Of a DNA stretch of 18,555 nt, positions 1 through 16,905 are shown in pieces. Every line of letters begins with the position of its first letter. Positions within the stretch are counted from its first letter, which is position 1. Origin of the DNA: a virus (Duplodnaviria > Heunggongvirae > Uroviricota > Caudoviricetes); the IMG/VR virus record IMGVR_UViG_2630968500_000002, positions 1 through 18,555 of that record; one strand, given 5' to 3'. The notes below the pieces were generated by a model. That model ran no database searches. It was not told the origin of the DNA and was given only the letters and a program-made list of their open reading frames with translations. Both the position numbers and the translations under genes were made by a program.

Positions 1-36
1 GACGTAAACCAAACCTTAATCGGGAGATACTGCACT

Positions 37-279
37 ATGAGCACTGATATTTCAATTCGTGTACCAAAAGAGATGGCTACGCCTGCAGAGTTCGCGGAAT
101 GGGAAGGTATCTCCCGCGGCTCCGTGTATCAAAAAATTCACCATGGTCAGCTTGCTAAATACATGGTCAAGAAAGAAAAAAACAAAGGCCGCGTAAGTCT
201 GCGTTATTTAATGTACAAAACCGATCAGGTCCGTGAATCCCTCGGTCATTCCAACTTCCGCGTCATTGTTGGTAAGTGA
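37..279 (+). CDS. Cox/Apl-like small DNA-binding regulator or excisionase (putative), first gene of the early lytic operon
   Basis: 80 aa ORF with GGGAGA RBS about 9 nt upstream of ATG; basic protein with a helix-turn-helix-like segment (AEFAEWEGISRGSVYQKI); lies immediately upstream of a CII-like gene, as apl does in phage 186. Function inferred from position and size only. Confidence 0.45.
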   Translation: MSTDISIRVPKEMATPAEFAEWEGISRGSVYQKIHHGQLAKYMVKKEKNKGRVSLRYLMYKTDQVRESLGHSNFRVIVGK

Positions 280-311
280 GTTCAATTATGAGAACTTTCT
301 AAGGGGATAGC

Positions 312-821
312 ATGTTTGATTATAAGATTTCCAAACACCCGCATTTTGATGAAGCCTGTAGAGCTTTTGCACTTCGTCACAATATGGCGAAGCTGGCAGA
401 ACGTGCAGGAATGAATGTCCAGACTCTGCGAAACAAACTCAACCCAGATCAACCGCATCAGCTCAATGCGCCAGAAATCTGGCTGCTTACCGATCTGACT
501 GAAGATTCAACGCTGATAGATGGTTTTCTGGCACAGATTCACTGCCTGCCATGTGTACCGATTAATGAGGTAGCAAAAGAGAAACTGCCGCATTACGTCA
601 TGAGTGCAACCGCAGAGATCGGGCGTGTTGCTGCAGGTGCGGTATCTGGCGATGTAAAAACCAGTGCAGGTCGTCGTGATGCTATCAGCAGCATTAACTC
701 TGTAACACGACTGATGGCGCTGGCTGCTGTTTCACTGCAGGCCCGTTTACAGGCTAACCCTGCGATGGCGAGTGCAGTTGATACCGTGACTGGCCTCGGT
801 GCTTCATTCGGTTTGCTGTGA
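312..821 (+). CDS. cII: Phage regulatory protein CII (186 CII / CP76-like)
   Basis: 169 aa ORF, same length as 186 CII as I recall it; N-terminal region MFDYKISKHPHFDEACRAFALRHNMAKLAERAGMNVQTLRNKLNP resembles the 186 CII family HTH region from memory; positioned second in the early operon. Confidence 0.65.
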   Translation: MFDYKISKHPHFDEACRAFALRHNMAKLAERAGMNVQTLRNKLNPDQPHQLNAPEIWLLTDLTEDSTLIDGFLAQIHCLPCVPINEVAKEKLPHYVMSATAEIGRVAAGAVSGDVKTSAGRRDAISSINSVTRLMALAAVSLQARLQANPAMASAVDTVTGLGASFGLL

Positions 822-828
822 GGTGCTT

Positions 829-1029
829 ATGCTTACGAAAGAACCATCATTTGCATCGCTGCTGGTTAAACAAAGCCCGGCAATGCACTACGGTCACGGC
901 TGGATCATGGGTGAGGATGGTAAACGCTGGCATCCGTGCCGTTCACAAGATGAATTGCTGGCAGAACTATCTACGAAAAAACGGGGGAACAAATGGCTAT
1001 TGAAGGCGCTGCGGCGACTGTTCCATTAA
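829..1029 (+). CDS. Hypothetical early protein (66 aa)
   Basis: ATG at 829 preceded by GAGGTG RBS; the ORF-track start at 799 has no RBS. Compact early-operon context. Function unknown. Confidence 0.45.
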   Translation: MLTKEPSFASLLVKQSPAMHYGHGWIMGEDGKRWHPCRSQDELLAELSTKKRGNKWLLKALRRLFH

Positions 1030-1334
1030 GCCCCGGTGAACGCCTGAATGGACTTAATCATATTGCGGAGTTAAGGGCGAAAGTTTTTGGTCTTAATATT
1101 GAGTCAGAGCTTGAACGGTTTATTAAAGATATGCGTGATCCACGGGATATTAATAGCGAACAAAATAAACGGGCACTGGCTGCCATATTCTTTATGGCAA
1201 AAATTCCAGCTGAACGTCATAGCATCAGCATTAATGAGCTGACCACTGACGAAAAGCGGGAGTTGATTAAAGCAATGAATCATTTTCGTGCAGTGGTGAG
1301 CTTATTTCCCAGACGGCTAACCATGCCGAATTAA
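993..1334 (+). CDS. Hypothetical early protein (113 aa)
   Basis: ATG at 993 preceded by GGGGGAA RBS; overlaps the previous gene by 37 nt in a different frame; no alternative in-frame start downstream. Confidence 0.55.
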   Translation: MAIEGAAATVPLSPGERLNGLNHIAELRAKVFGLNIESELERFIKDMRDPRDINSEQNKRALAAIFFMAKIPAERHSISINELTTDEKRELIKAMNHFRAVVSLFPRRLTMPN

Positions 1335-1401
1335 CCAACTAATGAAATTAATGGCGTAAACCCGCCGGGCATCCCTTTATCTAAATTCAGGAGTATTGAT
1401 T

Positions 1402-1635
1402 ATGCGTAATATTGAAACCCTCACGACTAAAACCGGACCGGATGACGCAGGGCTAAATATTTTACTGACAGAGGCTCGTCTGGAAGAACGCCGGGCAAGG
1501 GCTGAAGCAATGGCTGCCCGCCTTGATAGTCTTGCGTGTCATATCACATCCCGCCAGCTAAACCACGTCGAAGCGGCAGAACTGCTGCGTGTGACCGCTG
1601 AAGCAATCCAGAACGAAGCGCAGGAGATCCACTAA
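1402..1635 (+). CDS. Small early protein, DUF2732-like (P2-family conserved hypothetical)
   Basis: AGGAG at 1388-1392 followed by ATG at 1402; the ORF-track start at 1396 is TTG. Stop TAA overlaps the next start (TAATG at 1633-1637). Family assignment is from memory and uncertain. Confidence 0.55.
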   Translation: MRNIETLTTKTGPDDAGLNILLTEARLEERRARAEAMAARLDSLACHITSRQLNHVEAAELLRVTAEAIQNEAQEIH

Positions 1636-1862
1636 TGGCTGATGCAATGGATCTCGTACAGCAGCGCGTTGAAGAAGAACGCCAGCGCCATATTCGTGCT
1701 GCCCGTGCCAAAACACCGGGCGTGTCTCGCGTGCTTTGCATTGAATGTGAAGTGCCAATTCCGCCAGCACGCCGCCGCGCCATTCCTGGAGTGCAGCTTT
1801 GCATTACCTGTCAGGAAATCGCAGAGCTGAAAGGCAAACATTACAACGGAGGTGCTGTATGA
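1635..1862 (+). CDS. TraR/DksA-family C4-type zinc-finger protein
   Basis: 75 aa with two CxxC pairs (CIECEV ... CITCQE) in the typical DksA/TraR spacing; start overlaps the upstream stop and the stop overlaps the dam start (ATGA), indicating translational coupling. Confidence 0.7.
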   Translation: MADAMDLVQQRVEEERQRHIRAARAKTPGVSRVLCIECEVPIPPARRRAIPGVQLCITCQEIAELKGKHYNGGAV

Positions 1863-2716
1863 GCACCATCCTGAAATGGGCGGGAAATAAAACCGCAATT
1901 ATGTCCGAACTGAAAAAACACCTTCCTGCTGGCCCGCGACTGGTTGAACCTTTCGCGGGTTCCTGTGCAGTGATGATGGAGACGGAGTACCCCAGCTATC
2001 TTGTTGCGGATATTAATCCTGATTTAATCAACCTCTATAAAAAGGTTGCTGCTGATTGTGAATCGTTTATATCTCGCGCCAGAGTTTTATTTGAGATCGC
2101 AAACAGGGAGGTGGCTTATTACAACATAAGGCAGGAGTTTAATTACTCAACTGAAATTACTGATTTCATGAAAGCGGTATATTTCCTGTATCTCAATCGT
2201 CACGGTTACCGTGGTTTATGTCGCTATAACAAGAGCGGGCATTTCAACATTCCCTACGGTAATTATAAAAATCCGTATTTCCCTGAAAAAGAAATTCGCG
2301 CATTTGCAGAAAAAGCCCAGCGGGCAACGTTTATCTGCGCCAGCTTTGATGAAACGCTGGCGATGTTGAAGGCGGGGGATGTGGTGTATTGCGATCCGCC
2401 GTATGACGGTACGTTTTCCGGTTATCACACTGACGGTTTCACTGAAGATGACCAGTATCACCTTGCATCCGTTCTTGAACATCGGTCATCAGAAGGACAT
2501 CCGGTCATTGTTTCTAACAGTGACACATCCCTGATCCGTTCGCTGTATCGCAATTTTACTCACCACTATATCAAGGTAAAACGCAGCATCGGTGTGGCAG
2601 CTGGCGAGGGTAAATCAGCAACAGAAATCATTGCTGTTTCCGGGCCGCGCTGCTGGGTGGGATTTGATTATTCGCGTGGCGTGGATAGTTCTGCCGTGTA
2701 CGGAGTACGTGCATGA
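1859..2716 (+). CDS. dam: DNA adenine methyltransferase (Dam-like, GATC-type N6-adenine MTase)
   Basis: N-terminus [15 protein letters not shown]....LVEPFAGS and a DPPY catalytic motif (VYCDPPYDG) are hallmarks of Dam-family MTases. ATG at 1859 with GGAGGTG RBS; the ORF-track start at 1799 is an upstream extension. 285 aa. Confidence 0.85.
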
Positions 2717-5127
2717 GTCATGCCGATATGAACAACTGCAGCGGCGTTAACGAGGTCGCCGCAGCATTCTCATGGAACAGCCCGAAAAAGGCTATTAACC
2801 CTTATCTGGACCCGGCGGAAGTTGCGCCGGTTTCTGCGCTTTCAAACCTGATCACTCTGTACGCTACCGATAACGAGCAGGAACAGCTGCGCCGCGAGGC
2901 ACTGAGTGATCAGGTCTGGGAGCGTTATTTCTTTAATGAATCCCGTGATCCTGTCCAACGCGAAATGGAGCAGGATAAGCTTATTAGCCGGGCAAAGCTG
3001 GCGCATGAGCAGCAGCGTTTTAATCCAGACATGGTCATTCTGGCGGACGTTAACGCCCAGCCTTCCCATATCAGCAAGCCGCTGATGCAACGTATTGAAT
3101 ACTTCAGCAGACTGGGCAGGCCAAAGGCTTATTCCCGCTATTTGCGTAAGACGATTAAGCCATGTCTGGAACGGCTGGAGCATGTACGCGACAGTCAGCT
3201 ATCCACTTCTTTTCGCTTTATGGCAAGCCATGAAGGGCTGGACGGCCTGCTGATTCTGCCTGAAATGAGTCAGGATCAGGTAAAACGCCTGTCCACCCTG
3301 GTAGCTGCGCATATGAGCATGTGCCTTGATGCCGCTTGTGGCGATTTGTATGCCACCGATGATGTTAAGCCAGAAGAAATCCGCAAGACATGGGAAAAGG
3401 TAGCAGCGGAAACCCTGCGACTGGATGTCATACCGCCTGCGTTTGAGCAACTTCGTCGGAAAAGAAACCGCCGCAAACCCGTGCCCTATGAACTCATTCC
3501 GGGTTCGCTGGCGCGTATGTTGTGCGCCGACTGGTGGTATCGGAAATTATGGAAGATGCGTTGCGAATGGCGGGAAGAGCAGTTGCGTGCTGTCTGCCTG
3601 GTCAGCAAAAAAGCATCTCCCTATGTTAGCTATGAAGCCGTGATGCATAAACGTGAGCAGCGCCGCAAGTCACTGGAGTTTTTCCGTTCTCATGAACTGG
3701 TGAACGAAGACGGCGACACGCTGGACATGGAGGATGTGGTAAACGCCAGCAGCAGCAACCCTGCGCATCGCCGCAATGAGATGATGGCCTGTGTTAAAGG
3801 TCTGGAGCTTATCGCGGAAATGCGCGGTGACTGCGCCGTTTTCTACACCATCACCTGTCCGTCACGTTTCCATTCCACGCTAAATAACGGCAGGCCCAAC
3901 CCGACCTGGACAAATGCGACGGTAAGACAAAGCAGCGATTATCTGGTCGGCATGTTTGCTGCATTTCGTAAGGCTATGCATAAAGCCGGGTTGCGCTGGT
4001 ATGGCGTGCGGGTGGCTGAGCCTCATCATGACGGCACCGTTCACTGGCACCTATTGTGTTTCATGCGCAAAAAAGACCGCCGCGCCATCACTGCATTACT
4101 GCGTAAGTTTGCCATCCGTGAAGACCGCGAGGAGCTGGGCAATAACACGGAGCCACGCTTTAAGTCTGAGCCGATAAACCCGCGCAAAGGAACGCCGACA
4201 AGCTACATCGCGAAATACATCAGTAAGAACATTGACGGGCGTGGTCTGGCTGGCGAGATCAGTAAGGAAACGGGTAAATCCTTGCGTGATAACGCTGAAT
4301 ACGTTAATGCCTGGGCGTCTCTGCATCGTGTACAGCAATTCCGCTTCTTTGGTATTCCGGGACGTCAGGCTTACCGTGAACTTCGCTTGCTGGCTGGTCA
4401 GGTGGCAAGGCAACAGGGTGACAAAAAAGCAGGTGCGCCGGTACTGGATAACCCGCGTCTTGATGCCATTCTGGCTGCTGCTGATGCTGGTTGTTTTGCT
4501 ACCTACATCATGAAGCAGGGCGGCGTACTGGTTCCCCGTAAATATCACCTCATCAGAACCGCTTATGAAATCAACGAAGAGCCGACCGCCTATGGCGATC
4601 ACGGTATTCGTATTTATGGCATCTGGTCACCAATTGCAGAGGGCAAGATCTGCACTCATGCAGTGAAGTGGAAAATGGTTCGTAAAGCCGTTGACGTTCA
4701 GGAGGCGGCAGCCGACCAGGGCGCTTGCGCCCCTTGGACTCGTGGCAATAACTGTCCCCTTGCTGAAAATTTGAACCAACAAGGGAAAGACAAATCAGCT
4801 GATGGGGATACCAGGACGGACATTACCCGCATGGATGACAAGGAGTTGCACGATTACCTGCACAGTATGAGCAAAAAAGAGCGCCGGGAACTGGCTGCAA
4901 GGTTACGCCTGGTGAAACCGAAACGGCGTAAAGACTACAAACAGCGAATTACAGACCATCAGCGACAGCAGCTAGTCTATGAACTGAAGTCCAGAGGATT
5001 TAATGGCAGCGAGAAAGAGGTCGATTTACTCCTTCGCGGCGGCAGTATTCCGTCAGGAGCAGGCCTGCGTATCTTCTATCGGAACCAGCGTTTGCAGGAA
5101 GATGATAAGTGGCGAAACCTGTATTAA
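2713..5127 (+). CDS. A: Replication initiation endonuclease A (rolling-circle Rep, P2 gpA-like)
   Basis: 804 aa; HUH-like motif VHWHLLCF and a two-tyrosine active-site motif [10 protein letters not shown] typical of P2 gpA / phiX174 A-type rolling-circle initiators; start overlaps the dam stop (ATGA at 2713-2716). Confidence 0.85.
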
Positions 5128-5219
5128 TTACGCGGGTTAACAATTCGTGCTCTTAATAATACCAGGCATATCAGGCTAATGAACGTAAAAAAACGTTTTA
5201 CATCAGTAAGATTATTATA

Positions 5220-5239
5220 TACTGTAAATATAAACAGTG
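5220..5239 (+). promoter_or_regulatory. LexA operator (SOS box) upstream of the tum-like module
   Basis: TACTGTAAATATAAACAGTG read directly: CTGT, then an 8-nt AT-rich spacer, then ACAG. Matches the E. coli LexA box consensus TACTGT(AT)4ACAGTA; located about 42 nt upstream of the ATG at 5281. Confidence 0.7.
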
Positions 5240-5280
5240 GTTATGTATACAGTATTGCTTGTGGTGTCATAGGAGGAAAG

Positions 5281-5469
5281 ATGCAGGACTATTTTTTGGA
5301 GTCTTTGAAGCTCCAGCGCATTGATTTTTTTCTTAAGCTTGTAGCGGCTAGTGAGTGTAGTGATGAAGAGAAGGGGCTGGCTTTGCAGTGGGTTTCTGAA
5401 CTGACAGATGAACTCATGGCAAAAATCAGAACCCACGAATACAACCGCTCAATGGATGTCATCAGCTGA
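5281..5469 (+). CDS. Small protein (62 aa) cotranscribed with the DinI-like gene; possible N-terminal Tum antirepressor-like moiety
   Basis: ATG at 5281 preceded by AGGAGGAAAG RBS; the ORF-track start at 5179 would place the LexA box inside the coding region, so the downstream start is preferred. Acidic protein, no recognised domain. Confidence 0.5.
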   Translation: MQDYFLESLKLQRIDFFLKLVAASECSDEEKGLALQWVSELTDELMAKIRTHEYNRSMDVIS

Positions 5470-5479
5470 GGTGACCTTT

Positions 5480-5713
5480 ATGCGCATTGAAATAATGATC
5501 GATAAAGAGCAGAAGATTAGCCAGTCTACCCTGGACGCCCTTGAATCCGAGCTTTACCGCAATCTGCGCCCCCTGTATCCCAAAACGGTAATTCGCATCC
5601 GCAAAGGTAGCTCTAACGGTGTGGAACTGACCGGACTGCAACTGGACGAAGAAAGAAAACAAGTGATGAAGATTATGCAGAAGGTGTGGGAAGACGACAG
5701 CTGGCTGCATTAA
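5480..5713 (+). CDS. DinI-family protein (DNA-damage-inducible protein I-like; Tum C-terminal-domain-like)
   Basis: 77 aa starting MRIEIMIDK...LDALESEL...WEDDSWL, which aligns by eye with E. coli DinI (MRIEVTIAK...IDALAGEL...WESADDW); GAGGTGA RBS before ATG 5480; LexA box upstream of the two-gene unit. Confidence 0.8.
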   Translation: MRIEIMIDKEQKISQSTLDALESELYRNLRPLYPKTVIRIRKGSSNGVELTGLQLDEERKQVMKIMQKVWEDDSWLH

Positions 5714-5719
5714 GAAAAG

Positions 5720-5760
5720 TTGCTGGCGTCTGAACTTGGTTCTGGCGTCAGCAAGGTTGA
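5720..5760. terminator. Putative hairpin terminator between the convergent DinI-like and secreted-protein genes
   Basis: Inverted repeat TTGCTGGCGTC (5720-5730) / GGCGTCAGCAA (5744-5754), with an A-tract upstream on the + strand (equivalent to a T-tract on the - strand). Confidence 0.4.
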
Positions 5761-5872
5761 ACAACGAGTACAGTGAGGCGTTAGGTGTGGCGTTTATTTG
5801 ATGAGTGAACGCCCGTTCTGCGACAGGTTCGGAGATTAAGGTTGAAACTACGGGCAAAATACCATCTTTTTC

Positions 5873-6298
5873 CTACTTAATTGAGTCCAGTAACAAGTTA
5901 CAGTTACTCTCATTGTAGAGAGAACGAGCAATTAGTGTTACCTGCTTTCCATTCATTCCCGGCTTATCCCATAACACAGCTTCTTGCGACGCCACAAATT
6001 CAGCATAATCAATTATGCGTTGTTCGTGATCTGGTTCCTCATAGCCAAAGTATGAGAGCGCATCGTTGTAAGCGTGGTAAGCTGCTTTCTGTAATATCTT
6101 GATATCGGCTGTAGGTACTAGCTCCGTGTAGCTAGGATCTAATTGTGTGCTACTGCCATAGAATGCACATGAAAGGTAAGATATTGATTTCTGTTGAGCT
6201 TTAGTTCCTTTCTCATAGTTTTTAGCTGTTACCGCCTGAACTGGGACGCTAACAAAGCTTGTAACCAGAATTAAAATTAATACGTAAAAGCTTTTCAT
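5873..6298 (-). CDS. Secreted/periplasmic protein of unknown function (cargo/moron gene)
   Basis: 141 aa; N-terminal signal peptide MKSFYVLILILVTSFVSVPVQA with AxA-type cleavage context (VQA/VT); GAGGT RBS 5 nt upstream on the - strand. Low GC (21 G+C in the 60 nt at 6181-6240) against about 60% in the structural genes. Transcribed opposite to the flanking phage genes. Confidence 0.7.
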   Translation of the reverse strand: MKSFYVLILILVTSFVSVPVQAVTAKNYEKGTKAQQKSISYLSCAFYGSSTQLDPSYTELVPTADIKILQKAAYHAYNDALSYFGYEEPDHEQRIIDYAEFVASQEAVLWDKPGMNGKQVTLIARSLYNESNCNLLLDSIK

Positions 6299-6571
6299 TT
6301 TGACCTCAGCCGAAACGTTAGAGAGACTATCGAAATTTGTAAAACCCGTGGCGATTCAGTTTGAGATCCTCCCCCTTACATGATTTTTAATCAAATATAT
6401 GCTTTTGTAAGCATACCTGTTAACCGAATTATTTATTTTTAGAGATCTTCCGACATACTGATTATGCCCGCTGAGGAGTTCACCTTGCGTAAAGTCCGAT
6501 TCGCTTTACTCGTCTGTGCATGTCTATGCTGCATGAGATTGCATGATCGTTTGAGGATCGTTTTTGCTAAG

Positions 6572-6595
6572 GCCCCCCAGAACTGGCGGGCTTTT
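6572..6595 (+). terminator. Putative GC-rich hairpin plus T-tract (terminator-like) in the cos-proximal intergenic region
   Basis: GCCCCCCAG..CTGGCGGGC stem with one mismatch, followed by TTTT; could instead be part of the cos packaging region. Confidence 0.3.
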
Positions 6596-6640
6596 GCGTA
6601 GATCATGCTCCTGCATGAAAACCACTACATAAAGCGGGCA

Positions 6641-6659
6641 GGCGTGGCGGGGATACGAG
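6641..6659. other. Candidate cos (cohesive end) site of the P2/186-type phage genome
   Basis: GGCGTGGCGGGGATACGAG; the first 13 nt are identical to the 19-nt cohesive-end sequence of 186 as I recall it (GGCGTGGCGGGGAAAGCAT; P2 is GGCGAGGCGGGGAAAGCAC). Lies between the end of the early/accessory region and the portal gene, as expected for cos. Confidence 0.4.
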
Positions 6660-6738
6660 CGCGCGCAAACATGTTTACTTGCAATTAATGTAGATATATT
6701 CTGAAATTGATAACTTACACATGAAAGGAGACGTGAGA

Positions 6739-6930
6739 GTGGCAAAATATACACCGGGCCAGAAAGTAAAACATGCAACAGGACATGGTCCAATCATGGT
6801 AATTGATCACTACCAATCGGCTACAATGGCAGTTTGTACGTGGTTTATTGGTGCTAAGAACCAGCGCGGAGTTTTTCATGAAGATACTCTAGTTTTATTT
6901 GTTCCAAAAGCTGAGAGTGATGATGAATGA
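6739..6930 (+). CDS. DUF2158/YodC-like small protein (63 aa)
   Basis: AGGAG at 6726-6730 then GTG at 6739, which is better RBS spacing than the ORF-track ATG at 6721. Sequence AKYTPGQKVKHATGHGPIMVIDHY fits the YodC/DUF2158 pattern (GD.V.LKSGGP.MTV) as recalled. Stop overlaps the downstream gene. Confidence 0.55.
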   Translation: MAKYTPGQKVKHATGHGPIMVIDHYQSATMAVCTWFIGAKNQRGVFHEDTLVLFVPKAESDDE

Positions 6931-7189
6931 TTCTCTGATAAAAATAGTTGACTGGATGGTTAATACCACTCGTTCTAATGGTGTGTTGTATCAGTCCGAG
7001 GTTGTTGAATTTCTAATCAATGACTTTGGGGACGAGTTCATCAAAACTAATGAGAATGGTAATTACGCTATAAGCAGTACTGTGCTAGCAAATTTTAGAA
7101 AGGCTAGCAAAGACGATATAGTTTGGGATCGTGAACAGTTAGCTTGGCGTTTACGCAATGAAAGCGATTTACCCGGACGGATGCAGTAG
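6920..7189 (+). CDS. Hypothetical small protein (about 89 aa), translationally coupled to the DUF2158-like gene
   Basis: ATG ATG at 6920/6923 overlapping the upstream stop (GATGATGAATGA); no recognised domain; followed by a terminator hairpin. Confidence 0.55.
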   Translation: MMNDSLIKIVDWMVNTTRSNGVLYQSEVVEFLINDFGDEFIKTNENGNYAISSTVLANFRKASKDDIVWDREQLAWRLRNESDLPGRMQ

Positions 7190-7206
7190 AGATAATACAG
7201 ATAATA

Positions 7207-7247
7207 GTGAACAAGCTGATAATTTCAACTTGTTCACTTCTTTTTTA
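7207..7247. terminator. Putative bidirectional rho-independent terminator between the small-gene pair and portal gene Q
   Basis: Inverted repeat GTGAACAAG (7207-7215) / CTTGTTCAC (7229-7237), followed by TTCTTTTTT on the + strand; lies just downstream of the Q stop on the - strand. Confidence 0.6.
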
Positions 7248-8288
7248 TGACTGATTATTTTCTAAGCCATAATATTCAAATTTGACTACCTCTTCATCTA
7301 ACCATTCATTAATTTCGGCAATGCGTTTTTGTAAAGGCATCAGTTCATTCCGAACAAATACCCGGCTGGCTTTCTCCACATCCCCAAACCCCCCTACATT
7401 ATTAGGCATAATCCCCATCATCTGCGGCGGCACTCGGTGTGCTGCCATCATGTCGTCCCGGCTCACGTTCTTGATATTCAGAAACTCATCCTTCGCCGCG
7501 ACTTCTGACAACGGGATGATCTGAAGCCCGTCCTTTTTGCCGTTAGGCGAGTACATAAACAGATTGCGGAAGTTACCTGGTCCTTTGGCGCTTTTCATCG
7601 CATTGCGGAGGTTGTTCACATCCTCCTGGTTTTGCGCGGCATCGGTCATGTACATGATGAAGCCTGCATGACTGCCGTTAATGTAATACTTTCGACGGAA
7701 CAGCGTGGCGGACTCGTTGAGCAGGGCAGACGGAATTGCAGAAAGATAACCGGGCAGGCCGTAGATCTCCTGATTAATATCTGGTTCCATTAGATGAAAA
7801 ATGCTGCCTTTCGTGAACTGATACGGCTGGGTTGTCATACCGTATTGCACAAACCAGTAGGTATCCAGGTCTAACCCGCGTCGGGTGTATTTTGCCAGCG
7901 CAGGCTCAAGGGCGATAACTTCACCGAATCGGTTCGTGCGTTTCTCCAGGTAGGCGTTACCAAATACCAGATAGTCCTGCACAAAACGCGAAAAAGCCTG
8001 CTGGCTGAGCAGCGGATGAGGGATATAGGTACTGGTCAGAATGTTGCACTTTACTGCAATCGGGGAACTGTGATGCACGGCGGCGCGGAAGGTGCGCGCC
8101 AGTCCGTCAAAGCTGACGGGCGGCTCATACCAACGGTCCATCTGTACGCATTCCACATAGTCCAGCAGTTCACGGCGGTCCAGAACAGGAACGGGATCGC
8201 CGAAGCTGAATGCTTCGGCTGTAGTTTGACTTTTAAGCTGGATCTTTTTCGTCGCCGCAGCTCGGTTCTTCTTACTCTTTCCCATCAA
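7245..8288 (-). CDS. Q: Portal (capsid portal) protein, P2 gpQ-like
   Basis: 347 aa (P2 Q is of similar size as recalled); divergent from O-N-M-L and directly downstream of the terminase ATPase gene on the same strand, the canonical P2 Q-P arrangement. Confidence 0.85.
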   Translation of the reverse strand: MMGKSKKNRAAATKKIQLKSQTTAEAFSFGDPVPVLDRRELLDYVECVQMDRWYEPPVSFDGLARTFRAAVHHSSPIAVKCNILTSTYIPHPLLSQQAFSRFVQDYLVFGNAYLEKRTNRFGEVIALEPALAKYTRRGLDLDTYWFVQYGMTTQPYQFTKGSIFHLMEPDINQEIYGLPGYLSAIPSALLNESATLFRRKYYINGSHAGFIMYMTDAAQNQEDVNNLRNAMKSAKGPGNFRNLFMYSPNGKKDGLQIIPLSEVAAKDEFLNIKNVSRDDMMAAHRVPPQMMGIMPNNVGGFGDVEKASRVFVRNELMPLQKRIAEINEWLDEEVVKFEYYGLENNQS

Positions 8289-10051
8289 AAAATCTCCACA
8301 ATATTGCTGGTATTGGCGGATTCGCCCTGCAGCGGTTCGTTAAACAGTGCGTGCATCGTTGCCCATGCCAGATCGGCGTGGCTGGCTTCTTCGCTGCGGC
8401 TGGCTTCATAGGTCGGGCGGTTGCCACTGGCGGTGGTGGCGCGACGGATTGCCATAAATGACTGCGCAATGTCGGTATGTCCGGCGTCAAACTCCAGACG
8501 GCGGTGGCTGATAATGTCGTAGGCCTTGAGTACCAGGGCGTTTTTAACGTTGGGGTTGTAGACAAACTCCCGGACGGCAGGAAAGAACGCTTTCACGTTC
8601 TCGTAAACCCCGTGACCAACGCCGGTTGAGTCGATGCCGATGTAGGTCACGTTGTACTGCTCGGTCAGTTTTTTGATTGCGTCAGCCTGGGCGCGGAAGT
8701 CCATCCCGCGCCACTGGTGACGCTCAAGAATGCGGAACTTACCGCCCGGCACGGCTGGCGGTGCCACCACCACGCATCCGGCGCTGTCGCCGTTCTGCGT
8801 ACCTTTTGCCGGGTCATAACCGATCCACACTTCGCGCCAGCCAAACGGGCGCAGGGCCAGAGCATGAAAGTCGGTCCAGACTTCCCAACTGTCCACCATG
8901 CACGCCTGCAGCTCGCTGAGCGGAAACACGGACGCGAGATCGTCCACAAACTCGCACATCAGTAGGTTCTGGTATTCGTCCGGGCTGTACTCCATGCGCA
9001 ACTGGTCGAGGTCGAACAGGTTACAGCCGCCGCGCACCGCATCTTCCACAGTGACTATCTGGCGGTACTGCCCGTCTGCGCACAGCAGGCCGGGGGCCAG
9101 ATTGCTGTGGGACAGGTCGATGTCCACCTTATCGGCTTTGTTGCGCCCACGATTGAACAGCGCACCGGACCAGAACGGATAAGCACTGTGAGTCAGGCTG
9201 GATGGCGTGGAAAAATAGGTTTGTCGCCATTTTTTGTGAATAGCCATACCGGAAGCCACTTTGCGCAGCTCCTGGAATTTCGGTATCCAGAAATATTCAT
9301 CCAGATACAGGTTGCCGTGATAACTCTGGGCAGTGCGGGCATTGGTGCCGAGGAAGTAAAGCGTGGCCCCGTTAGGAAGCACCATCGGATCGCCTTTCAA
9401 CTCCACCTCCACTTCTTTGGCGAAGTCGATGATGTACTGCTTAAAGACGTGGGCCTGTGCCTTGCTGGCGGAAAGGAAAATCTGGTTACGTCCGGTAAGC
9501 AGGGCGTCAATCAGGGCTTCACGGGCAAAGTAAAAGGTCGCGCCGATCTGGCGTGACTTCAGCAGGTTGCGGATGCGGTTGGCTTTTCCGGCTTCCCACC
9601 AGTGGCGCTGGTAGTTGAACATGGAGGAATGGAAGATTTCTTCCAGCTTCTCAATCTGCTCATCGGTGAAAACATTCTTTTCCGGCTGACGGCGCGGGCC
9701 TTTGTTGCGGTTGGCGACGTTAGGGTTTAAGTCGGCTTCGTTGCCGCCATTGTTAAACTTGCCGATCCGCGCGTGGCGCTCCGACTGGCGCGCCAGCAGG
9801 TCAATCTCTTTGAAATCTTTCCCTTCTTTGTGCTCCTTCATAATGAGCTGGCAGTAGCGTGCGGCGGTGGTGAGCTGCATCTGATCCAGCGGCCCATAGT
9901 CACCCCACTTGTCGCGTTTTTTCCAGCTGTGAACAGTTGCAACTTTCTCGCCCAGCATTTCAGCAATGCGGGCGACGCGGTATCCCTGAAAGTACAGCAG
10001 CATGGCCTGCCGACGGGGATCGAGATCTGCGGGTGTCAGTGTGGTGTTCAT
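8285..10051 (-). CDS. P: Terminase ATPase (large) subunit, P2 gpP-like
   Basis: 588 aa, matching P2 gpP size as recalled; its stop overlaps the Q start; divergent from the scaffold gene O across a late-promoter region. Confidence 0.9.
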   Translation of the reverse strand: MNTTLTPADLDPRRQAMLLYFQGYRVARIAEMLGEKVATVHSWKKRDKWGDYGPLDQMQLTTAARYCQLIMKEHKEGKDFKEIDLLARQSERHARIGKFNNGGNEADLNPNVANRNKGPRRQPEKNVFTDEQIEKLEEIFHSSMFNYQRHWWEAGKANRIRNLLKSRQIGATFYFAREALIDALLTGRNQIFLSASKAQAHVFKQYIIDFAKEVEVELKGDPMVLPNGATLYFLGTNARTAQSYHGNLYLDEYFWIPKFQELRKVASGMAIHKKWRQTYFSTPSSLTHSAYPFWSGALFNRGRNKADKVDIDLSHSNLAPGLLCADGQYRQIVTVEDAVRGGCNLFDLDQLRMEYSPDEYQNLLMCEFVDDLASVFPLSELQACMVDSWEVWTDFHALALRPFGWREVWIGYDPAKGTQNGDSAGCVVVAPPAVPGGKFRILERHQWRGMDFRAQADAIKKLTEQYNVTYIGIDSTGVGHGVYENVKAFFPAVREFVYNPNVKNALVLKAYDIISHRRLEFDAGHTDIAQSFMAIRRATTASGNRPTYEASRSEEASHADLAWATMHALFNEPLQGESANTSNIVEIF

Positions 10052-10087
10052 GGCACAAACCTACAGCCTTGAATGAAGGCTTTCCCC

Positions 10088-10105
10088 GCCTGCGGTTTGT
10101 GTGGT
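10088..10105. promoter_or_regulatory. Candidate late-promoter activator site (TGT-N12-ACA) in the divergent P/O control region
   Basis: TGTGTGGTTGTCGGTACA read directly. P2/186 late promoters activated by Ogr/B carry a TGT-N12-ACA dyad centred near -55; this site lies about 95 nt upstream of the O start codon. Confidence 0.45.
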
Positions 10106-10193
10106 TGTCGGTACAAATACCGCGCATTGTTTCACTGCCCCCATCACCGCAACCATAAGGCTCCAGTAAGTTTTTTCTAACGGAGCACGGCTC

Positions 10194-11027
10194 ATGACAG
10201 TGAAAGCAAAGCGTTTTCGCATCGGGGTGGAAGGTGCCACCACCGACGGACGCGAAATCCAGCGTGAATGGCTGGAACAGATGGCAGCCAGCTACAACCC
10301 GGCGGTGTATACCGCGCTGATTAACCTTGAGCACATCAAGTCTTATCTGCCGGACAGCACCTTTAACCGCTACGGCAAGGTGACGGCGCTGTTTGCTGAA
10401 GAAATCACGGAAGGTCCGCTGGCAGGCAAGATGGCGCTGTATGCCGACGTTGAGCCAACGGAATCCCTGGTGGAACTGGTGAAAAAAGGCCAGAAATTAT
10501 TCACCTCTATGGAAGTCAGCCCGAAGTTTGCTGATACGGGCAAAGCCTACCTGGTCGGCCTGGCTGCCACTGATGACCCTGCCAGTCTGGGCACTGAAAT
10601 GCTGACATTCAGCGCCAGTGCAGCCCATAACCCGCTGGCAAACCGCAAGCAGAATCCCGCCAATCTCTTTACCGCCGCAGAGGAAACGGTGATCGAACTG
10701 GAAGAAATCCAGGAGGACAAGCCGTCCCTGTTTGCCCGCGTCACGGCACTGTTCACCAAAAAAGAGCAGTCCGACGATGCCCGGTTCTCTGATGTGCATA
10801 AGGCCGTGGAGCTGGTCGCCACTGAGCAGCAAAACCTGAGCGCACGCACCGAAAAATCCCTGTCTGAGCAGGAAGAACGTCTGTCTGAGCTGGAGACTGC
10901 CCTGCAGGCACAGCAGACCGCCTTTAACGAACTGGTGAATAAGCTGAGTCATGAAGACAGCCGCCAGGACTACCGCCAGCGTGCAACAGGCGGTAACGCC
11001 CCCGCTGACACTCTGACCAATTGCTGA
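10194..11027 (+). CDS. O: Capsid scaffolding protein, P2 gpO-like
   Basis: 277 aa; CGGAG RBS 8 nt upstream of the ATG; first gene of the rightward late operon preceding the major capsid gene; acidic coiled-coil-rich C-terminal half typical of scaffold proteins. Confidence 0.85.
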   Translation: MTVKAKRFRIGVEGATTDGREIQREWLEQMAASYNPAVYTALINLEHIKSYLPDSTFNRYGKVTALFAEEITEGPLAGKMALYADVEPTESLVELVKKGQKLFTSMEVSPKFADTGKAYLVGLAATDDPASLGTEMLTFSASAAHNPLANRKQNPANLFTAAEETVIELEEIQEDKPSLFARVTALFTKKEQSDDARFSDVHKAVELVATEQQNLSARTEKSLSEQEERLSELETALQAQQTAFNELVNKLSHEDSRQDYRQRATGGNAPADTLTNC

Positions 11028-11043
11028 TGGAGCACAAAACCCG

Positions 11044-12102
11044 ATGAAGAAGAATACCCGCTTTGCTTTTAACGCTTACCTGCAGCAGCTGGCGCGTCTG
11101 AACGGTGTGGCCGTTGAAGAACTGTCCAGCAAGTTCACTGTAGAGCCGTCTGTGCAGCAGACGCTGGAAGATCAGATCCAGCAGTCCGCCGCATTCCTGA
11201 CGCTGATTAACGTCACGCCAGTGACTGAGCAGTCTGGTCAGTTGCTGGGGCTGGGTGTTGGCAGCACCATTGCCGGAACCACTGATACCACAGCTAAAGA
11301 GCGTGAGCCTGTCGATCCGACGCTGATGGTCGATGTGGAATATAAATGCGAGCAGACTAACTTTGACACGGTGCTGACCTACGCGAAGCTGGACCTGTGG
11401 GCGAAGTTTCAGGATTTCCAGGTGCGTATCCGTGACGCCATCGTGAAACGTCAGGCACTGGACCGCATCATGATCGGCTTTAACGGCGTGAAGCGTGCGA
11501 AAACCTCCAACCGTAGCGAAAACCCGCTGCTGCAGGATGTGAACAAAGGCTGGCTGCAGAAAATCCGTGAAGATGCACCGGATCACGTCATGGGCAGCAC
11601 CACCACGGGCGGTGAAACCACACCGGGTGCGGTGAAAGTCGGTAAAGGTGGCGAATATGCCAACCTGGACGCAGTGGTGATGGATGCCGTCAATGAGCTT
11701 ATCGACGTGGTCTACCAGGACGATGACGATCTGGTGGTGATTTGCGGTCGTGAACTGCTGTCTGACAAGTATTTCCCGCTGGTCAACAAAGAGCAGGAAA
11801 ACAGTGAAAAACTGGCTGCCGATATGATCATCAGCCAGAAACGCATGGGTGGCCTGCAGGCCGTGCGTGCGCCGTTCTTCCCGCCGAATGCGCTGCTGAT
11901 CACCCGTCTGGATAACCTGTCCATCTACTGGCAGGAAGACACCCGCCGCCGTTCAGTTATCGACAACCCGAAACGTGACCGGATTGAAAACTTTGAATCC
12001 GTTAACGAAGCCTATGTGGTTGAGGACTACCGCTGCGCCGCACTGGTGGAAAACATCCAGATTGGTGACTTCAGCGCCGCCGCAGCAGAAACCGGAGCGT
12101 AA
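11044..12102 (+). CDS. N: Major capsid protein, P2 gpN-like
   Basis: 352 aa, immediately downstream of the scaffold gene; size and position match P2 N. Confidence 0.9.
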   Translation: MKKNTRFAFNAYLQQLARLNGVAVEELSSKFTVEPSVQQTLEDQIQQSAAFLTLINVTPVTEQSGQLLGLGVGSTIAGTTDTTAKEREPVDPTLMVDVEYKCEQTNFDTVLTYAKLDLWAKFQDFQVRIRDAIVKRQALDRIMIGFNGVKRAKTSNRSENPLLQDVNKGWLQKIREDAPDHVMGSTTTGGETTPGAVKVGKGGEYANLDAVVMDAVNELIDVVYQDDDDLVVICGRELLSDKYFPLVNKEQENSEKLAADMIISQKRMGGLQAVRAPFFPPNALLITRLDNLSIYWQEDTRRRSVIDNPKRDRIENFESVNEAYVVEDYRCAALVENIQIGDFSAAAAETGA

Positions 12103-12105
12103 TTC

Positions 12106-12756
12106 ATGAGCCTGAGTCCCGCACGGCAGCATCGCCTGCGCGTTCAGGCTGAACAGGCCGCTCGCGAGGGTGGCAGTGTTCGCCACGCGTCGGGCTATGA
12201 CCTGATGCTGCTGCAACTGGCGGAAGACCGCCGCCGTCTCAAGGGCGTTCAGTCCACGGTCAAAAAAGCGGAAATCAAGGTGGAGCTGCTGCCGAAGTAC
12301 GCCGCCTGGGCGGAGGGCGTCCTGGCTGCCGGAGGCGCTCAACAGGATGACGTGCTGATGTACGTGATGCTGTGGCGCATTGATGCCGGAGATTATGCCG
12401 GGGCGCTGGAGATCGGGCGTCATGCCCTGCGTCATGGCTGGGTGATGCCGCTGGGTAACCGCAACGTGCAGACCGTGCTGGCAGAGGAAATGGCAGATGC
12501 AGCGCAGAGCGCAATGCTTGCCGCCACCGACTTTGATGCCGATCTGTTACTGCAGACGCTGGAGCTGACAGACGGTCTGGATATGCCGGACCAGTCACGG
12601 GCGCGTCTGCATAAAGCGATTGGCGCTGTCCTGAGTGAAAGCAATCCGGCTTCCGCCCTTAATCATCTCAACCATGCGTTACAGCTCGATCCCCGCTGTG
12701 GCGTGAAAAAAGACAAACAGCAGCTGGAGCGCAGACTGCGCAATGACAGCCGCTGA
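12106..12756 (+). CDS. M: Terminase endonuclease (small) subunit, P2 gpM-like
   Basis: 216 aa following N by 3 nt with a GGAG RBS; position matches P2 M. Confidence 0.8.
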   Translation: MSLSPARQHRLRVQAEQAAREGGSVRHASGYDLMLLQLAEDRRRLKGVQSTVKKAEIKVELLPKYAAWAEGVLAAGGAQQDDVLMYVMLWRIDAGDYAGALEIGRHALRHGWVMPLGNRNVQTVLAEEMADAAQSAMLAATDFDADLLLQTLELTDGLDMPDQSRARLHKAIGAVLSESNPASALNHLNHALQLDPRCGVKKDKQQLERRLRNDSR

Positions 12757-12851
12757 CAGAACGTGCCCCCGCGCACGGGCGGCACGGGGTGGCGAAAGGC
12801 ACTGCCACATCAAAATCCCGTCCACCGCCCTCTATTTCAGGAGAAAGCAGC

Positions 12852-13316
12852 ATGAAGTTTGTTGCGCCAGAACAGGCACCGGAACAGGCGGAAATCATCA
12901 GAAATACGCCGTTCTGGCCTGATGTGGACCTGTCGGAGTTTCGCTGTGTCATGCGCACTGACGGCACGGTGACGCAGCCGCGTTTAAAGCAGGTTGCCCT
13001 GTCGGCAATTTCGGAGGTCAACGCAGAGCTGTATGAGTTTCGCAGACGTCAGCAGATGCTGGGATATGCCTCGCTGGCAGAGGTTCCGGCGGAACAGCTG
13101 GACGGCAAAAGTGAGCGCATTCATCACTATTTCAACGCGGTTTACTGCTGGGCACGCGCCATGCTCAACGAGCGTTATCAGGACTATGACGCCACGGCAT
13201 CCGGTGTGAAGCGGGGCGAGGAACTGGCGGAAGCAAGCGGTGATTTGTGGCGTGACGCCCGCTGGGCCATCAGCCGGGTGCAGGATGCGCCGCACTGCAC
13301 AGTGGAGCTTATCTGA
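12852..13316 (+). CDS. L: Head completion/stabilisation protein, P2 gpL-like
   Basis: ATG at 12852 with AGGAGAAAG RBS; the ORF-track start at 12789 is an upstream extension. About 155 aa; stop overlaps the X start (TGATG). Confidence 0.8.
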   Translation: MKFVAPEQAPEQAEIIRNTPFWPDVDLSEFRCVMRTDGTVTQPRLKQVALSAISEVNAELYEFRRRQQMLGYASLAEVPAEQLDGKSERIHHYFNAVYCWARAMLNERYQDYDATASGVKRGEELAEASGDLWRDARWAISRVQDAPHCTVELI

Positions 13317-13519
13317 TGAAAGTGCGTGCGCATCAGTATGACACGGTGGACGCGCTTTGCTGGCGTCATTACGGGCGCACGCAGGGTGTCACGGAGCAGG
13401 TACTGAAGGCAAATCCGGGGCTTGCCGAATACGGCCCCTTTTTACCTCACGGGCTGCAGGTGGAGCTGCCGGACATTCCGACAACCACCACCGTGCAGAC
13501 CGTCCAGCTATGGGACTGA
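13316..13519 (+). CDS. X: Tail protein X, P2 gpX-like
   Basis: 67 aa, same size as P2 gpX as recalled; located between L and the lysis cassette. Confidence 0.8.
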   Translation: MKVRAHQYDTVDALCWRHYGRTQGVTEQVLKANPGLAEYGPFLPHGLQVELPDIPTTTTVQTVQLWD

Positions 13520-13522
13520 ATT

Positions 13523-13738
13523 ATGACGCTTGAGCGAATCAGCGCCTTTATCACGTATTGCATCGCCGTCGTGCTGGCCTGGCTGGGCGATTTGTCCATC
13601 AAGGATGCCTCAACGCTGGGCGGCCTGATGATTGGTGTACTGATGCTGGCTATCAACTGGTACTACAAACACAAAGCCTACCAGCTTCTGCGCGACGGGC
13701 AGATCTCGCGGGAGGACTATGAATCCATCAATCGTTAA
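13523..13738 (+). CDS. Holin (small two-TM, pinholin-like)
   Basis: 71 aa with two hydrophobic segments (ISAFITYCIAVVLAWLG and LGGLMIGVLMLAINWYY) and a charged C-terminus; immediately upstream of and overlapping a SAR endolysin gene. Confidence 0.7.
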   Translation: MTLERISAFITYCIAVVLAWLGDLSIKDASTLGGLMIGVLMLAINWYYKHKAYQLLRDGQISREDYESINR

Positions 13739-14231
13739 ACGCTGCCTTGTCGGGGCCGTGCTGGCTATTGCTGCCACGCTGCCGGGTTTTCAGCAGCTTC
13801 ACACCTCCGTGGAGGGGCTGAAACTGATTGCTGATTACGAAGGCTGTCGTCTGCAGCCGTATCAGTGCAGCGCGGGTGTCTGGACCGACGGCATTGGTAA
13901 TACGTCGGGCGTCATTCCCGGCAAAACCATTACGGAGCGACAGGCAGCAGAAGGGCTGATCTCCAACGTGCTGCGTGTGGAGCGGGCGCTGGAAAGGTGT
14001 GTGAAGCAACAGCCGCCGCAGAAGGTGTATGACGCTGCGGTGTCGTTTGCCTTCAACGTGGGAACGGGCAATGCCTGCAGTTCCACACTGGTGAAATTAC
14101 TCAATCAGCGGCGCTGGGCGGATGCGTGCCGACAGTTGCCGCGCTGGGTTTATGTGAAAGGTGTTTTTAATCAGGGGCTGGATAACCGCCGTGCGCGGGA
14201 GATGGCCTGGTGCTTACAGGGAGCAAACTGA
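13719..14231 (+). CDS. SAR endolysin (T4-lysozyme-like muramidase with N-terminal signal-anchor-release domain)
   Basis: N-terminal G/A-rich weakly hydrophobic segment CLVGAVLAIAATLPGF, then an E-x8-D-x5-T catalytic triad (EGLKLIADYEGCRLQ...WTDGIGNT), as in phage 21 R-type SAR lysozymes; GGGAGGA RBS; 170 aa. Confidence 0.85.
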   Translation: MNPSIVKRCLVGAVLAIAATLPGFQQLHTSVEGLKLIADYEGCRLQPYQCSAGVWTDGIGNTSGVIPGKTITERQAAEGLISNVLRVERALERCVKQQPPQKVYDAAVSFAFNVGTGNACSSTLVKLLNQRRWADACRQLPRWVYVKGVFNQGLDNRRAREMAWCLQGAN

Positions 14232-14232
14232 A

Positions 14233-14610
14233 ATGAAAAAGAAAGTAATCAGCGGGCTGTTTCTGATGTTATGGATGGCGCTGTTGATCGCAGCAATGGT
14301 GTATCCACAGGGGATTTTTCCGGTACTGGCAGCGTCCGGTGTCTGGGTAGCCTGTCTGCTGACATGGGCGGTAATTCCGGTAGCACTGGCTGCGTTAATT
14401 AAGAACGGCCCGCTCTGGCAGGAGTTGAGGGCATCTTTGCTAAAGACCATTACCCGAAAAGAAAACGTATTTATCAGCTGGGTGATGCGATTGCTGATTG
14501 TCGTAAGTTTTGCCTGGACGGGGTGGGCTATTACCCTGGTCTTTTATCTGCTGACCGTTATTGCCTTCTGGATGATCCGTAATCAGATTGCGCAACAGGT
14601 AGCAGCATGA
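14233..14610 (+). CDS. lysA: LysA-like membrane protein (lysis timing/holin accessory)
   Basis: 125 aa, multiple hydrophobic helices; follows the endolysin as lysA does in P2. Confidence 0.6.
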   Translation: MKKKVISGLFLMLWMALLIAAMVYPQGIFPVLAASGVWVACLLTWAVIPVALAALIKNGPLWQELRASLLKTITRKENVFISWVMRLLIVVSFAWTGWAITLVFYLLTVIAFWMIRNQIAQQVAA

Positions 14611-15035
14611 ACCGGTTGCTGCTGGTTGTGCTGGCGTTATTACTGGCGGCGCTGGGCTGGCAGACGTGGCGGCTGGCTGATGCCAGCCAGACCATCAGCA
14701 CGCAGGCAGACGAGCTTCGGAGCAAAAGCCAGGCACTGGCAAAGAGCAACAGCCAGCTTATCAGCCTGTCCATTCTGACTGAAACCAATAACCGGGAGCA
14801 GGCGCGGCTCTATGCCGAAGCAGAACAGACCAGTGTACTGCTGAGACAACGACAACACCGGATTGAGGAACTGAAACGTGAGAACGAGGATTTACGCCGC
14901 TGGGCTGATACTCCTGTGCCTGCTGACATTATCCGGCTGCGGGAACGCCCCACACTCACCGGAGGTGCAGCTTACCGTCAGTGGTTGTCCGCGAGTGACG
15001 CCGTGTCGGCTGGGGCAGGCAGCGCCGCGCACTAA
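14607..15035 (+). CDS. lysB: LysB-like inner-membrane spanin (i-spanin, Rz-like)
   Basis: 142 aa; N-terminal TM (LLLVVLALLLAALGW) and coiled-coil periplasmic domain; contains the embedded start of an o-spanin gene in the +1 frame. Confidence 0.8.
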   Translation: MNRLLLVVLALLLAALGWQTWRLADASQTISTQADELRSKSQALAKSNSQLISLSILTETNNREQARLYAEAEQTSVLLRQRQHRIEELKRENEDLRRWADTPVPADIIRLRERPTLTGGAAYRQWLSASDAVSAGAGSAAH

Positions 15036-16001: not shown

Positions 16002-16027
16002 GCCAACTAATTTGGTTAATCTAATTT

Positions 16028-16861: not shown

Positions 16862-16905
16862 TATTTTCTCCGTTGATTTTATTTATCGTTAATTTTCAGT
16901 TGTAA

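Follow-up and report, generated by a model that had tools for sequence, protein, structure and literature searches.

The interval between gpA and gpQ of P2-like phages has been described as a defence hotspot (Rousset 2022, PMC9122126; NAR 2026, PMC13586616), and in P2 itself its cargo includes old and tin (PMC9122126; PMC13586616). The hotspot is a productive source of new anti-phage systems. Here we analysed one of its uncharacterised occupants, a pair of small overlapping open reading frames (ORF1 and ORF2) in an 18,555-nucleotide stretch of viral DNA (IMG/VR record IMGVR_UViG_2630968500_000002, positions 1 to 18,555; hereafter the window) that is a 186/P2-like (Peduoviridae) prophage, with E. 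coli as its host setting. Like other P2 hotspot cargo, the pair lies in the A-to-Q interval beside cos and shows high turnover. Unlike characterised hotspot cargo it carries no recognised defence domain, and it occupies the side of cos that faces Q, which holds no gene in P2 or 186. That accessory cargo occupies the P2 hotspot was known; what is new is the description of this module, its cross-phylum conservation and its swapped effector partners.

The closest described relative of ORF1 is YodC of E. coli, the only form in which the DUF2158 family appears in the literature: an RpoS-dependent small protein encoded by a solo core gene, for which the DUF2158 and YodC papers report no function. 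The two proteins share the motif set G-x-x-V...G-G-P-x-M...W-F-x-G-x-K...F, whereas ORF1 stands apart by its divergence (19.7 bits), by an insertion of one residue within the SGGP motif, and by being prophage-borne and coupled to a DUF6953 gene. ORF2 belongs to DUF6953, for which the nearest described proteins are the defence regulators BrxR and CapW, likewise winged-helix proteins associated with immune effectors. BrxR and CapW are, however, ~290 amino acids long, contain WYL and WCX domains and lie upstream of large systems, whereas DUF6953 is a bare domain of ~90 amino acids, set apart by a conserved NxNGNxAI hairpin and a D-x-PGR-x-Q tail. As an operon, the pair resembles toxin-first type II toxin-antitoxin operons (higBA, hicAB, mqsRA) in its two small, overlapping and co-translated genes, its mobile carriage, the DNA-binding-type fold encoded downstream and a conserved upstream region bearing a palindrome. 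It differs from them in showing no similarity to known toxin or antitoxin families, in that DUF6953 is commonly solo, and in that DUF2158 is also a harmless-looking core gene.

DUF2158 and DUF6953 form a conserved operon

Forty DUF6953 loci covering a wide range of phyla were collected by scanning one genome per species for a pattern drawn from a 15-sequence subset. At 15 of the 40, DUF6953 is immediately preceded on its own strand by a canonical DUF2158 gene, and these 15 are spread over Pseudomonadota, Myxococcota, Acidobacteriota, Verrucomicrobiota and Planctomycetota. All-against-all clustering of the flanking open reading frames identified DUF2158 as the sole recurrent neighbour, other recurrences being antisense shadows. 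All four distant viral contigs with DUF6953 have this upstream gene too, as do at least four plasmids (Thiothrix, Aeromonas, Phaeobacter and Cupriavidus); on the plasmids RefSeq also names it DUF2158. Of 18 distant pairs, 9 have stop and start codons that share bases as ATGA or GTGA, and in most of the others 2-7 nucleotides separate the two genes. Because this type of junction is repeated in distant pairs, we regard translational coupling as a conserved property of the module. This bears out an earlier annotation made from the window sequence alone (the first-pass annotation), which had proposed that the two genes are co-translated as a unit: the order DUF2158-DUF6953, with a 4-nucleotide overlap or a gap of at most 7 nucleotides, recurs across phyla. 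One metagenomic protein is a natural DUF2158-DUF2158-DUF6953 fusion in a single frame. On this comparative evidence, the order DUF2158-DUF6953 constitutes a conserved operon that phages, plasmids and chromosomes carry in no fewer than five phyla, and that is reported here for the first time. With inoviruses also among the carriers of the coupled module, the pair is no lineage-specific oddity.

At four Rhodobacterales/Sneathiella loci (L046, L047, L051 and L078) a third small open reading frame (62-110 amino acids) directly follows DUF6953; it is conserved among L046, L047 and L051, and in L078 is placed by annotated position only. The Phaeobacter module adjoins a gene annotated 'abortive infection family' and a Panacea-domain gene.

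In the window, the stop codon of ORF1 (TGA at 6928-6930) lies within the start region of ORF2, the overlap being ATGATGAATGA (given as GATGATGAATGA in the first-pass annotation) and ATGAGTGA in the Klebsiella orthologue. Since ORF2 may start at either of two ATG codons, at 6920 or 6923, the overlap comprises 11 or 8 nucleotides. The earlier figure of 11 thus stands if ATG 6920 is used and falls to 8 if translation begins at the conserved ATG 6923, the only one of the two that the Klebsiella orthologue keeps. Three diverged orthologous loci were compared, namely the window, L007 of K. michiganensis and L010 of E. coli (dS 0.9-2.2). Both genes are under strong purifying selection across these loci, with ratios of nonsynonymous to synonymous substitution rates (dN/dS) of 0.03-0.08, that of ORF1 being ~0.05; by this measure ORF1 and ORF2 are real, constrained genes.

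ORF1 is a divergent DUF2158/YodC-like protein

The open reading frame list gives ORF1 as 6721-6930, but ATG 6721 is not conserved in the orthologous locus L010, whereas a GTG at 6739 is conserved, as is the AAAGGAGAC Shine-Dalgarno sequence 8 nucleotides ahead of it. The product is therefore most likely the 63-amino acid protein that RefSeq annotates (WP_024169233), and this start replaces the one assigned previously. The protein ends in an acidic C-terminal tail (ESDDE).

The match of ORF1 to Pfam DUF2158 (PF09926; 19.5-19.7 bits, E 7e-4 to 8e-4) falls short of the gathering threshold of 22.3. It matches PHROG 3261 at E 1e-7 and a hidden Markov model (HMM) of the DUF2158 proteins encoded upstream of distant DUF6953 genes at E 2e-22. 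The alignment of ORF1 with 14 distant DUF2158 partner proteins spans the whole protein; ORF1 retains G7, V10, G15, G17, P18, W35, F36, G38, K40 and F46, which are invariant in the alignment of ORF1 with these partners, and also M20. All 17 aligned proteins match PF09926. The DUF2158/YodC-like identity proposed in the first-pass annotation is thus upheld by the partner profile and the family motif residues, although the Pfam score is below the cut-off. An AlphaFold2 model of ORF1, for which the alignment held near-identical sequences only, has five strands and low confidence (predicted local distance difference test, pLDDT, 59); this poor model was left out of fold searches. Sequence searches of solved structures returned no match for either the DUF2158 or the DUF6953 family, and a canonical DUF2158 query against GenBank phages matched just a few unrelated phages.

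ORF2 is a DUF6953 protein with a predicted winged helix

The RefSeq version of ORF2 is 89 amino acids long and is named DUF6953 family protein (WP_096997786). ORF2 matches Pfam DUF6953 (PF22266) with 84.7 bits (E 5e-24, profile positions 4-73 of 74), well past the gathering threshold of 27, and also matches PHROG 10782. What had been listed as a protein of 89 amino acids without known function can thus be given a family and a predicted fold, with a length of 88 or 89 amino acids. Word-indexed searches gave close enterobacterial relatives only; it was an exhaustive HMMER search of representative sequences that revealed the family, with 639 clusters at 50% identity, mostly stand-alone proteins of ~90 amino acids. 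The family consensus reads W-M...L-Y-Q...F-G..F.Y.N.N-G-N.A-I...V-L..F-R-K.....V-V-W.R....W-R.R...D.P-G-R.Q, and the conserved residues include the basic R60, R71, R77 and R79; helix 3 and the wing are basic and conserved. A literature search found no paper that mentions DUF6953 or PF22266, and tblastn of ORF2 against 50,697 GenBank phage records gave no match.

The AlphaFold2 model of ORF2, built with the family alignment, has a pLDDT of 93.6 and the topology H-b-H-(b-hairpin)-H-b-b, from which we confidently predict a winged helix; this is an assignment of fold and not a claim of membership. The nearest solved structures to the model are the winged helix-turn-helix (wHTH) domains of BrxR and CapW. 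Because sequence identity to these is 8-16%, the likeness is that of the generic winged-helix fold only, and Foldseek searches against the PDB and the viral BFVD gave generic winged-helix matches with E above 0.01.

Some DUF6953 proteins carry additional N-terminal regions. One subgroup (P0071, P0081, P0092, P0105, P0109, P0125, P0138, P0141 and P0148) has long acidic, repeat-rich extensions that terminate in a conserved P-(E/P)-P-D-P-N-L-T motif right before the domain, and P0061, P0133 and P0143 have N-terminal zinc ribbons.

DUF6953 has further partners

DUF6953 was also found joined to, or beside, proteins other than DUF2158. P0016 is a fusion of DUF6953 with a ThsB1-like TIR domain (Pfam TIR_2, 3e-19; PADLOC ThsB, 2e-54). 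ThsB-type TIR proteins of Thoeris have variable C-terminal domains; the window contains no TIR and no ThsA. The P0016 fusion comes from a single contig of 1 kb with 1.9x coverage, and suggests that DUF6953 can serve as a non-catalytic or sensor part of an immune protein. In P0159 a weak HEPN_Swt1 match is fused to DUF6953. In inovirus prophages of E. coli and Klebsiella, a second DUF6953 gene lies 10 nucleotides downstream of a gene for a 264-amino acid protein. The C-terminus of this protein is a restriction endonuclease (REase) domain of the DpnII-MboI type (REase_DpnII-MboI, Pfam 7e-59) that also matches the Argonaute-associated effectors of PADLOC (Aga_Helical-REase, 1e-34), and its N-terminus matches the PADLOC candidate system PDC-S35. 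The REase and DUF6953 pair, which in the E. coli inovirus comprises WP_001527023 and WP_001527024, is present in the chromosomes of 24 E. coli genomes and at positions 3178-4249 of locus L073, on the K. pneumoniae plasmid NZ_CP132684. At two other loci unrelated proteins of 197 and 91 amino acids are encoded directly upstream of DUF6953, the latter with a faint Cas2-like match.

The pair is acquired cargo directly right of cos

Within the prophage the pair lies between gpA and the portal gene and adjoins cos (Table 1). Positions 6641-6659 align to the annotated 19-nucleotide cohesive ends (cosL) of P2 and 186 and are followed by a shared GCGCGC, in agreement with the earlier placement of cos; this core is identical in the prophages of E. 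coli HS and K. michiganensis. Between cos and the portal stop the window has 604 nucleotides, compared with 186-195 in P2 and 186, where a terminator alone occupies the interval. The distance in the window agrees with the figure of about 600 bp given previously, and the statement that P2 has no genes between cos and Q is correct and holds for 186 as well.

Several observations mark this DNA as acquired, as the first-pass annotation had supposed. The pair is low in guanine plus cytosine (GC content 0.37-0.41; phage core, 0.50-0.63). Homology between the window and the prophage of E. coli HS ends directly after 6666, and the HS slot holds an unrelated gene of 463 amino acids. The pair is present in 8 of 5426 complete E. 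coli genomes, although the cos flank occurs in 1269. Prophages of Klebsiella and Enterobacter, as well as a further E. coli lineage, have orthologues of the pair (79-88% identity) at this position, and in K. michiganensis prophages the pair is the sole hotspot cargo besides a conserved 61-amino acid open reading frame. The cargo left of cos differs among carriers, being a 141-amino acid secreted protein in the window, DUF4145 in E. coli KL53, HipA and HIRAN in E. coli DS26-1 and two unknown genes in L010, and the slot right of cos therefore behaves as a module of its own.

A moron is a self-contained transcription unit inserted between phage genes. The terminator hairpin and low GC of the cassette fit this description, and its promoter, a weak consensus match, is predicted from strong conservation. 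Judged by these signals and its distribution, the pair is a horizontally acquired cassette and probably a moron. Three complete E. coli chromosomes match the 661 bases around it at 100% identity; in them RefSeq labels the genes 'hypothetical protein', 'DUF6953 family protein' and 'phage portal protein'. Both RefSeq proteins are listed as 'hypothetical' for NZ_CP025903 in the hotspot table of Rousset 2022 (supplementary file 6, PMC9122126), and we found no sign in that study of curation or testing of the two proteins.

Table 1. Positions of the cassette features and of prophage landmarks in the window
Feature	Position	Strand	Description
cos core	6641..6666	.	19-nucleotide cohesive-end sequence GGCGTGGCGGGGATACGAG plus conserved GCGCGC; left boundary of the cargo
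Promoter-like block TTTACT-17 nt-TATTCT	6674..6702	+	near-invariant in three orthologous loci
Shine-Dalgarno AAAGGAG for ORF1	6724..6730	+	conserved, with constant GTG spacing in three orthologous loci
ORF1, 63 amino acids, GTG start	6739..6930	+	divergent DUF2158/YodC-like small beta protein
ORF1 stop/ORF2 start overlap	6920..6930	+	translational coupling site, visible in sequence
ORF2, 89 amino acids from ATG 6920 or 88 from ATG 6923	6920..7189	+	DUF6953 winged-helix protein (predicted fold)
Terminator hairpin, 14-bp stem at 7206-7238	7206..7246	.	TCTTTTTT follows on the + strand
CII-like regulator	312-821	+	landmark
Dam-type methylase	1799-2716	+	landmark
Replication gene A (gpA)	2713-5127	+	landmark
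DinI-like gene	within 5408-5713	+	landmark
Portal (homologue of P2 Q and 186 W)	7245-8288	-	Pfam Phage_portal and RefSeq annotation; right boundary of the cargo
Terminase	8285-10051	-	landmark
Scaffold gpO	10194-11027	+	landmark
Capsid gpN	11044-12102	+	landmark
Baseplate gpV	16969-17547	+	landmark

Conserved signals flank the two genes

Upstream of ORF1 lies a promoter-like block, TGTTTACTTGCAATnAATGTAGnTATATTCT, which hardly varies across the three orthologous loci even though their synonymous sites are near saturation. An imperfect palindrome, TTACTTGCAATTAA at 6675-6688, overlaps it. A scan for sigma-70 consensus sites found no strong promoter and did not call the block at 6674-6702. We infer that this block is the promoter of the pair and possibly also an operator. 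The promoter postulated in the first-pass annotation thus has a conserved candidate, though not a strong site by consensus. A perfect 10-bp palindrome, AAACATGTTT, is located at 6667-6676, adjoining the cos core on its right, where the cargo begins; in Klebsiella it is only partly retained (AAGCATGTTT).

The terminator hairpin lies 6 nucleotides past the portal stop on the minus strand, and the pairing of its stem is preserved in K. michiganensis through a compensatory change. P2 and 186 have the annotated terminators tQ and tW in its place. It had been called bidirectional: on the plus strand the hairpin is followed by TCTTTTTT, whereas the tail on the minus strand is merely A/T-rich, so that action in both directions is plausible.

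Insertion sequence (IS) elements interrupt the cassette in 2 of the 8 E. coli carriers, each upstream of an intact DUF6953 gene. In E. coli KL53 (L066) an IS1 lies within ORF1 (window equivalent 6842-6851), and in E. coli DS26-1 (L067) an ISEc47 lies in the conserved promoter block (window equivalent 6691-6701). These insertions are weakly consistent with a cost of cassette expression.

Other observations concern the surrounding prophage. The 141-amino acid open reading frame left of cos (5873-6298, minus strand) is part of the hotspot and has a clear N-terminal signal peptide; it matches PHROG 7437 at 1.8e-97, corresponds to RefSeq WP_000834899, has no Pfam match and, in supplementary file 6 of Rousset 2022, appears again beside other partners (HIRAN, DUF262/DUF1524). 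A 270-amino acid open reading frame at 16046-16861 (minus strand) runs counter to the late genes, close upstream of baseplate gene V; its sole match, to HNH_5, is weak, and it resembles a second cargo slot within the tail region. In E. coli 300709 (NZ_CP025903) the prophage ends after the scaffold gene and abuts ssrA, and an 'anti-phage dCTP deaminase' gene flanks its integrase end. An Rfam scan of the window matched no RNA family.

A possible role in conflict and its alternatives

We tentatively favour, at somewhat less than even confidence, a reading in which the pair is a conflict module, either for defence or toxin-antitoxin-like, with DUF6953 as a shared binding or regulatory partner. Support for the toxin-antitoxin, exclusion or anti-defence functions raised in the first-pass annotation is indirect. 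The conflict reading is favoured because of the effector associations of DUF6953, the presence of DUF2158 in the slot that effectors occupy elsewhere, and the hotspot position; carriage on mobile elements and the IS elements in 2 of 8 carriers were also counted in its favour. Coupling, conserved adjacency and the natural fusion imply formation of a complex, and the effector associations, together with a winged helix whose helix 3 and wing are basic, suggest that DUF6953 is a shared binding, regulatory or sensor part. In such a module the pair would be expressed from the prophage, and coupling would yield both proteins together in similar amounts, which would then act as a complex. DUF6953 would bind nucleic acid, most likely through the conserved basic residues of helix 3 and the wing, and would restrain or direct its partner. 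It would be the recurring component, combined elsewhere with interchangeable effectors (a ThsB-like TIR, a REase-fold nuclease or a HEPN-like domain), and DUF2158 would fill the effector slot in this cassette. The outcome would be either anti-phage exclusion or abortive infection, or the action of a toxin-first toxin-antitoxin-like pair.

A number of findings weigh against a conflict role. ORF1 and ORF2 match no toxin, antitoxin or defence model of Pfam, NCBIfam or PADLOC; with PADLOC-DB 2.0, ORF1 had no match and ORF2 only JukA at E 0.033, which is noise. By these profile searches the pair is outside the described toxin-antitoxin and defence families. DUF2158 has no recognisable catalytic motif and also occurs as the solo RpoS-regulated core gene yodC, and ORF2 is acidic (isoelectric point 4.6). 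DUF6953 has no coupled upstream open reading frame at 25 of the 40 genomic loci. Elsewhere the module has varied neighbours, which are related to defence in occasional cases only: they include integrases, excisionase-type helix-turn-helix proteins, TrwB and a transposase, as well as Abi_alpha, AIPR, HipA_C and PIN, and housekeeping genes, and a Pfam scan of 150 flanking open reading frames found no dominant family. The TIR, HEPN and DUF2158 fusions are each known from one metagenomic contig, whose length of 1-2 kb leaves no neighbouring genes in view, and so count as leads and not as proof. The P2 hotspot, finally, holds non-defence cargo too (PMC9122126).

As to type II toxin-antitoxin systems, the pair consists of adjacent small genes with an overlap of 8 or 11 nucleotides, and the junction is conserved in 18 distant pairs. 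Co-occurrence of the two families is not obligatory, and by Pfam, NCBIfam and PADLOC neither protein falls in a recognised toxin or antitoxin superfamily. Given the solo DUF6953 loci and the solo yodC, neither protein seems obligately paired or obviously toxic. A classical toxin-antitoxin pair was rejected, since no toxin family was matched and solo genes are frequent.

The pair could instead be a moron with no part in conflict, in which DUF6953 is a DNA-binding regulator and DUF2158 a YodC-like protein of stress or stationary phase, together tuning host or prophage expression in the manner of lysogenic conversion or fitness genes. We regard this as a serious alternative, if an unlikely one. 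The winged helix with basic R60, R71, R77 and R79, the palindrome in the conserved promoter block, which may be an autoregulatory operator, the frequent solo DUF6953 genes, the non-toxic yodC of the RpoS regulon, the often housekeeping neighbours and the lack of any matching defence model would all suit it. It accounts less readily for the strong ties of the module to mobile elements and the P2 defence hotspot, the fusion or adjacency of DUF6953 to TIR, REase and HEPN-like effectors, the IS disruptions, or an isoelectric point that is unusual in a simple repressor. By analogy with acr-aca operons, the upstream small protein might inhibit an immune system of the host or of a rival element and DUF6953 might act as an autorepressor, which would explain why the upstream genes vary. 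The order of a small protein and a conserved wHTH protein, the varied upstream partners (DUF2158 and the proteins of 197 and 91 amino acids), carriage by phages, inoviruses and plasmids, and the palindrome-bearing promoter block are as such an operon would have them. DUF2158, however, spans phyla and is core chromosomal, unlike the fast-evolving, narrow-range Acr proteins; the nuclease and TIR partners are effectors and not inhibitors, and the module is also found at chromosomal sites with no nearby phage genes, all of which makes an anti-defence operon distinctly improbable.

Two further explanations are hard to sustain. The position of the pair between cos and the portal gene might point to an accessory of packaging or morphogenesis in this phage lineage, with pair, portal and terminase side by side, and on the distant viral contig L063 large open reading frames, judged terminase-like by sequence alone, are transcribed away from the pair. 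Yet it is convergent to the late operon and has its own signals, occurs in no more than 8 of the 1269 genomes of E. coli with the cos flank, is lacking from P2, 186 and, by tblastn, the 50,697 GenBank phage records, and is found on plasmids, in inovirus prophages and on chromosomes that have no packaging genes. A packaging role was rejected for this rarity and these non-phage contexts, and we give it very little credence. Slighter still is the chance that the reading frames are spurious or decaying and without function, as their small size, the Pfam score of ORF1 and the IS elements in 2 of 8 carriers might suggest; the family-level profile matches, the conservation of the operon across phyla and the confident fold prediction for ORF2 argue against this, and it was rejected on the purifying selection acting on both genes.

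Returning to the conflict reading, a broader form of it, which we consider speculative and on the whole unlikely, is that DUF2158-DUF6953 is the commonest form of an unrecognised, multi-phylum family of minimal two-component conflict systems. In such a family a DUF6953 sensor or antitoxin of ~90 amino acids would be combined with swapped effectors (the DUF2158 barrel, a ThsB-like TIR, HEPN or a REase-fold nuclease), the DUF2158 barrel would be a new and very small effector, and solo DUF6953 proteins would be orphan neutralisers or decoys. If the pair proves inactive, it would be ordinary unknown cargo in a known hotspot. As it stands, DUF2158 and DUF6953 gain a concrete and cheaply testable hypothesis, one that extends to yodC of E. 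coli.

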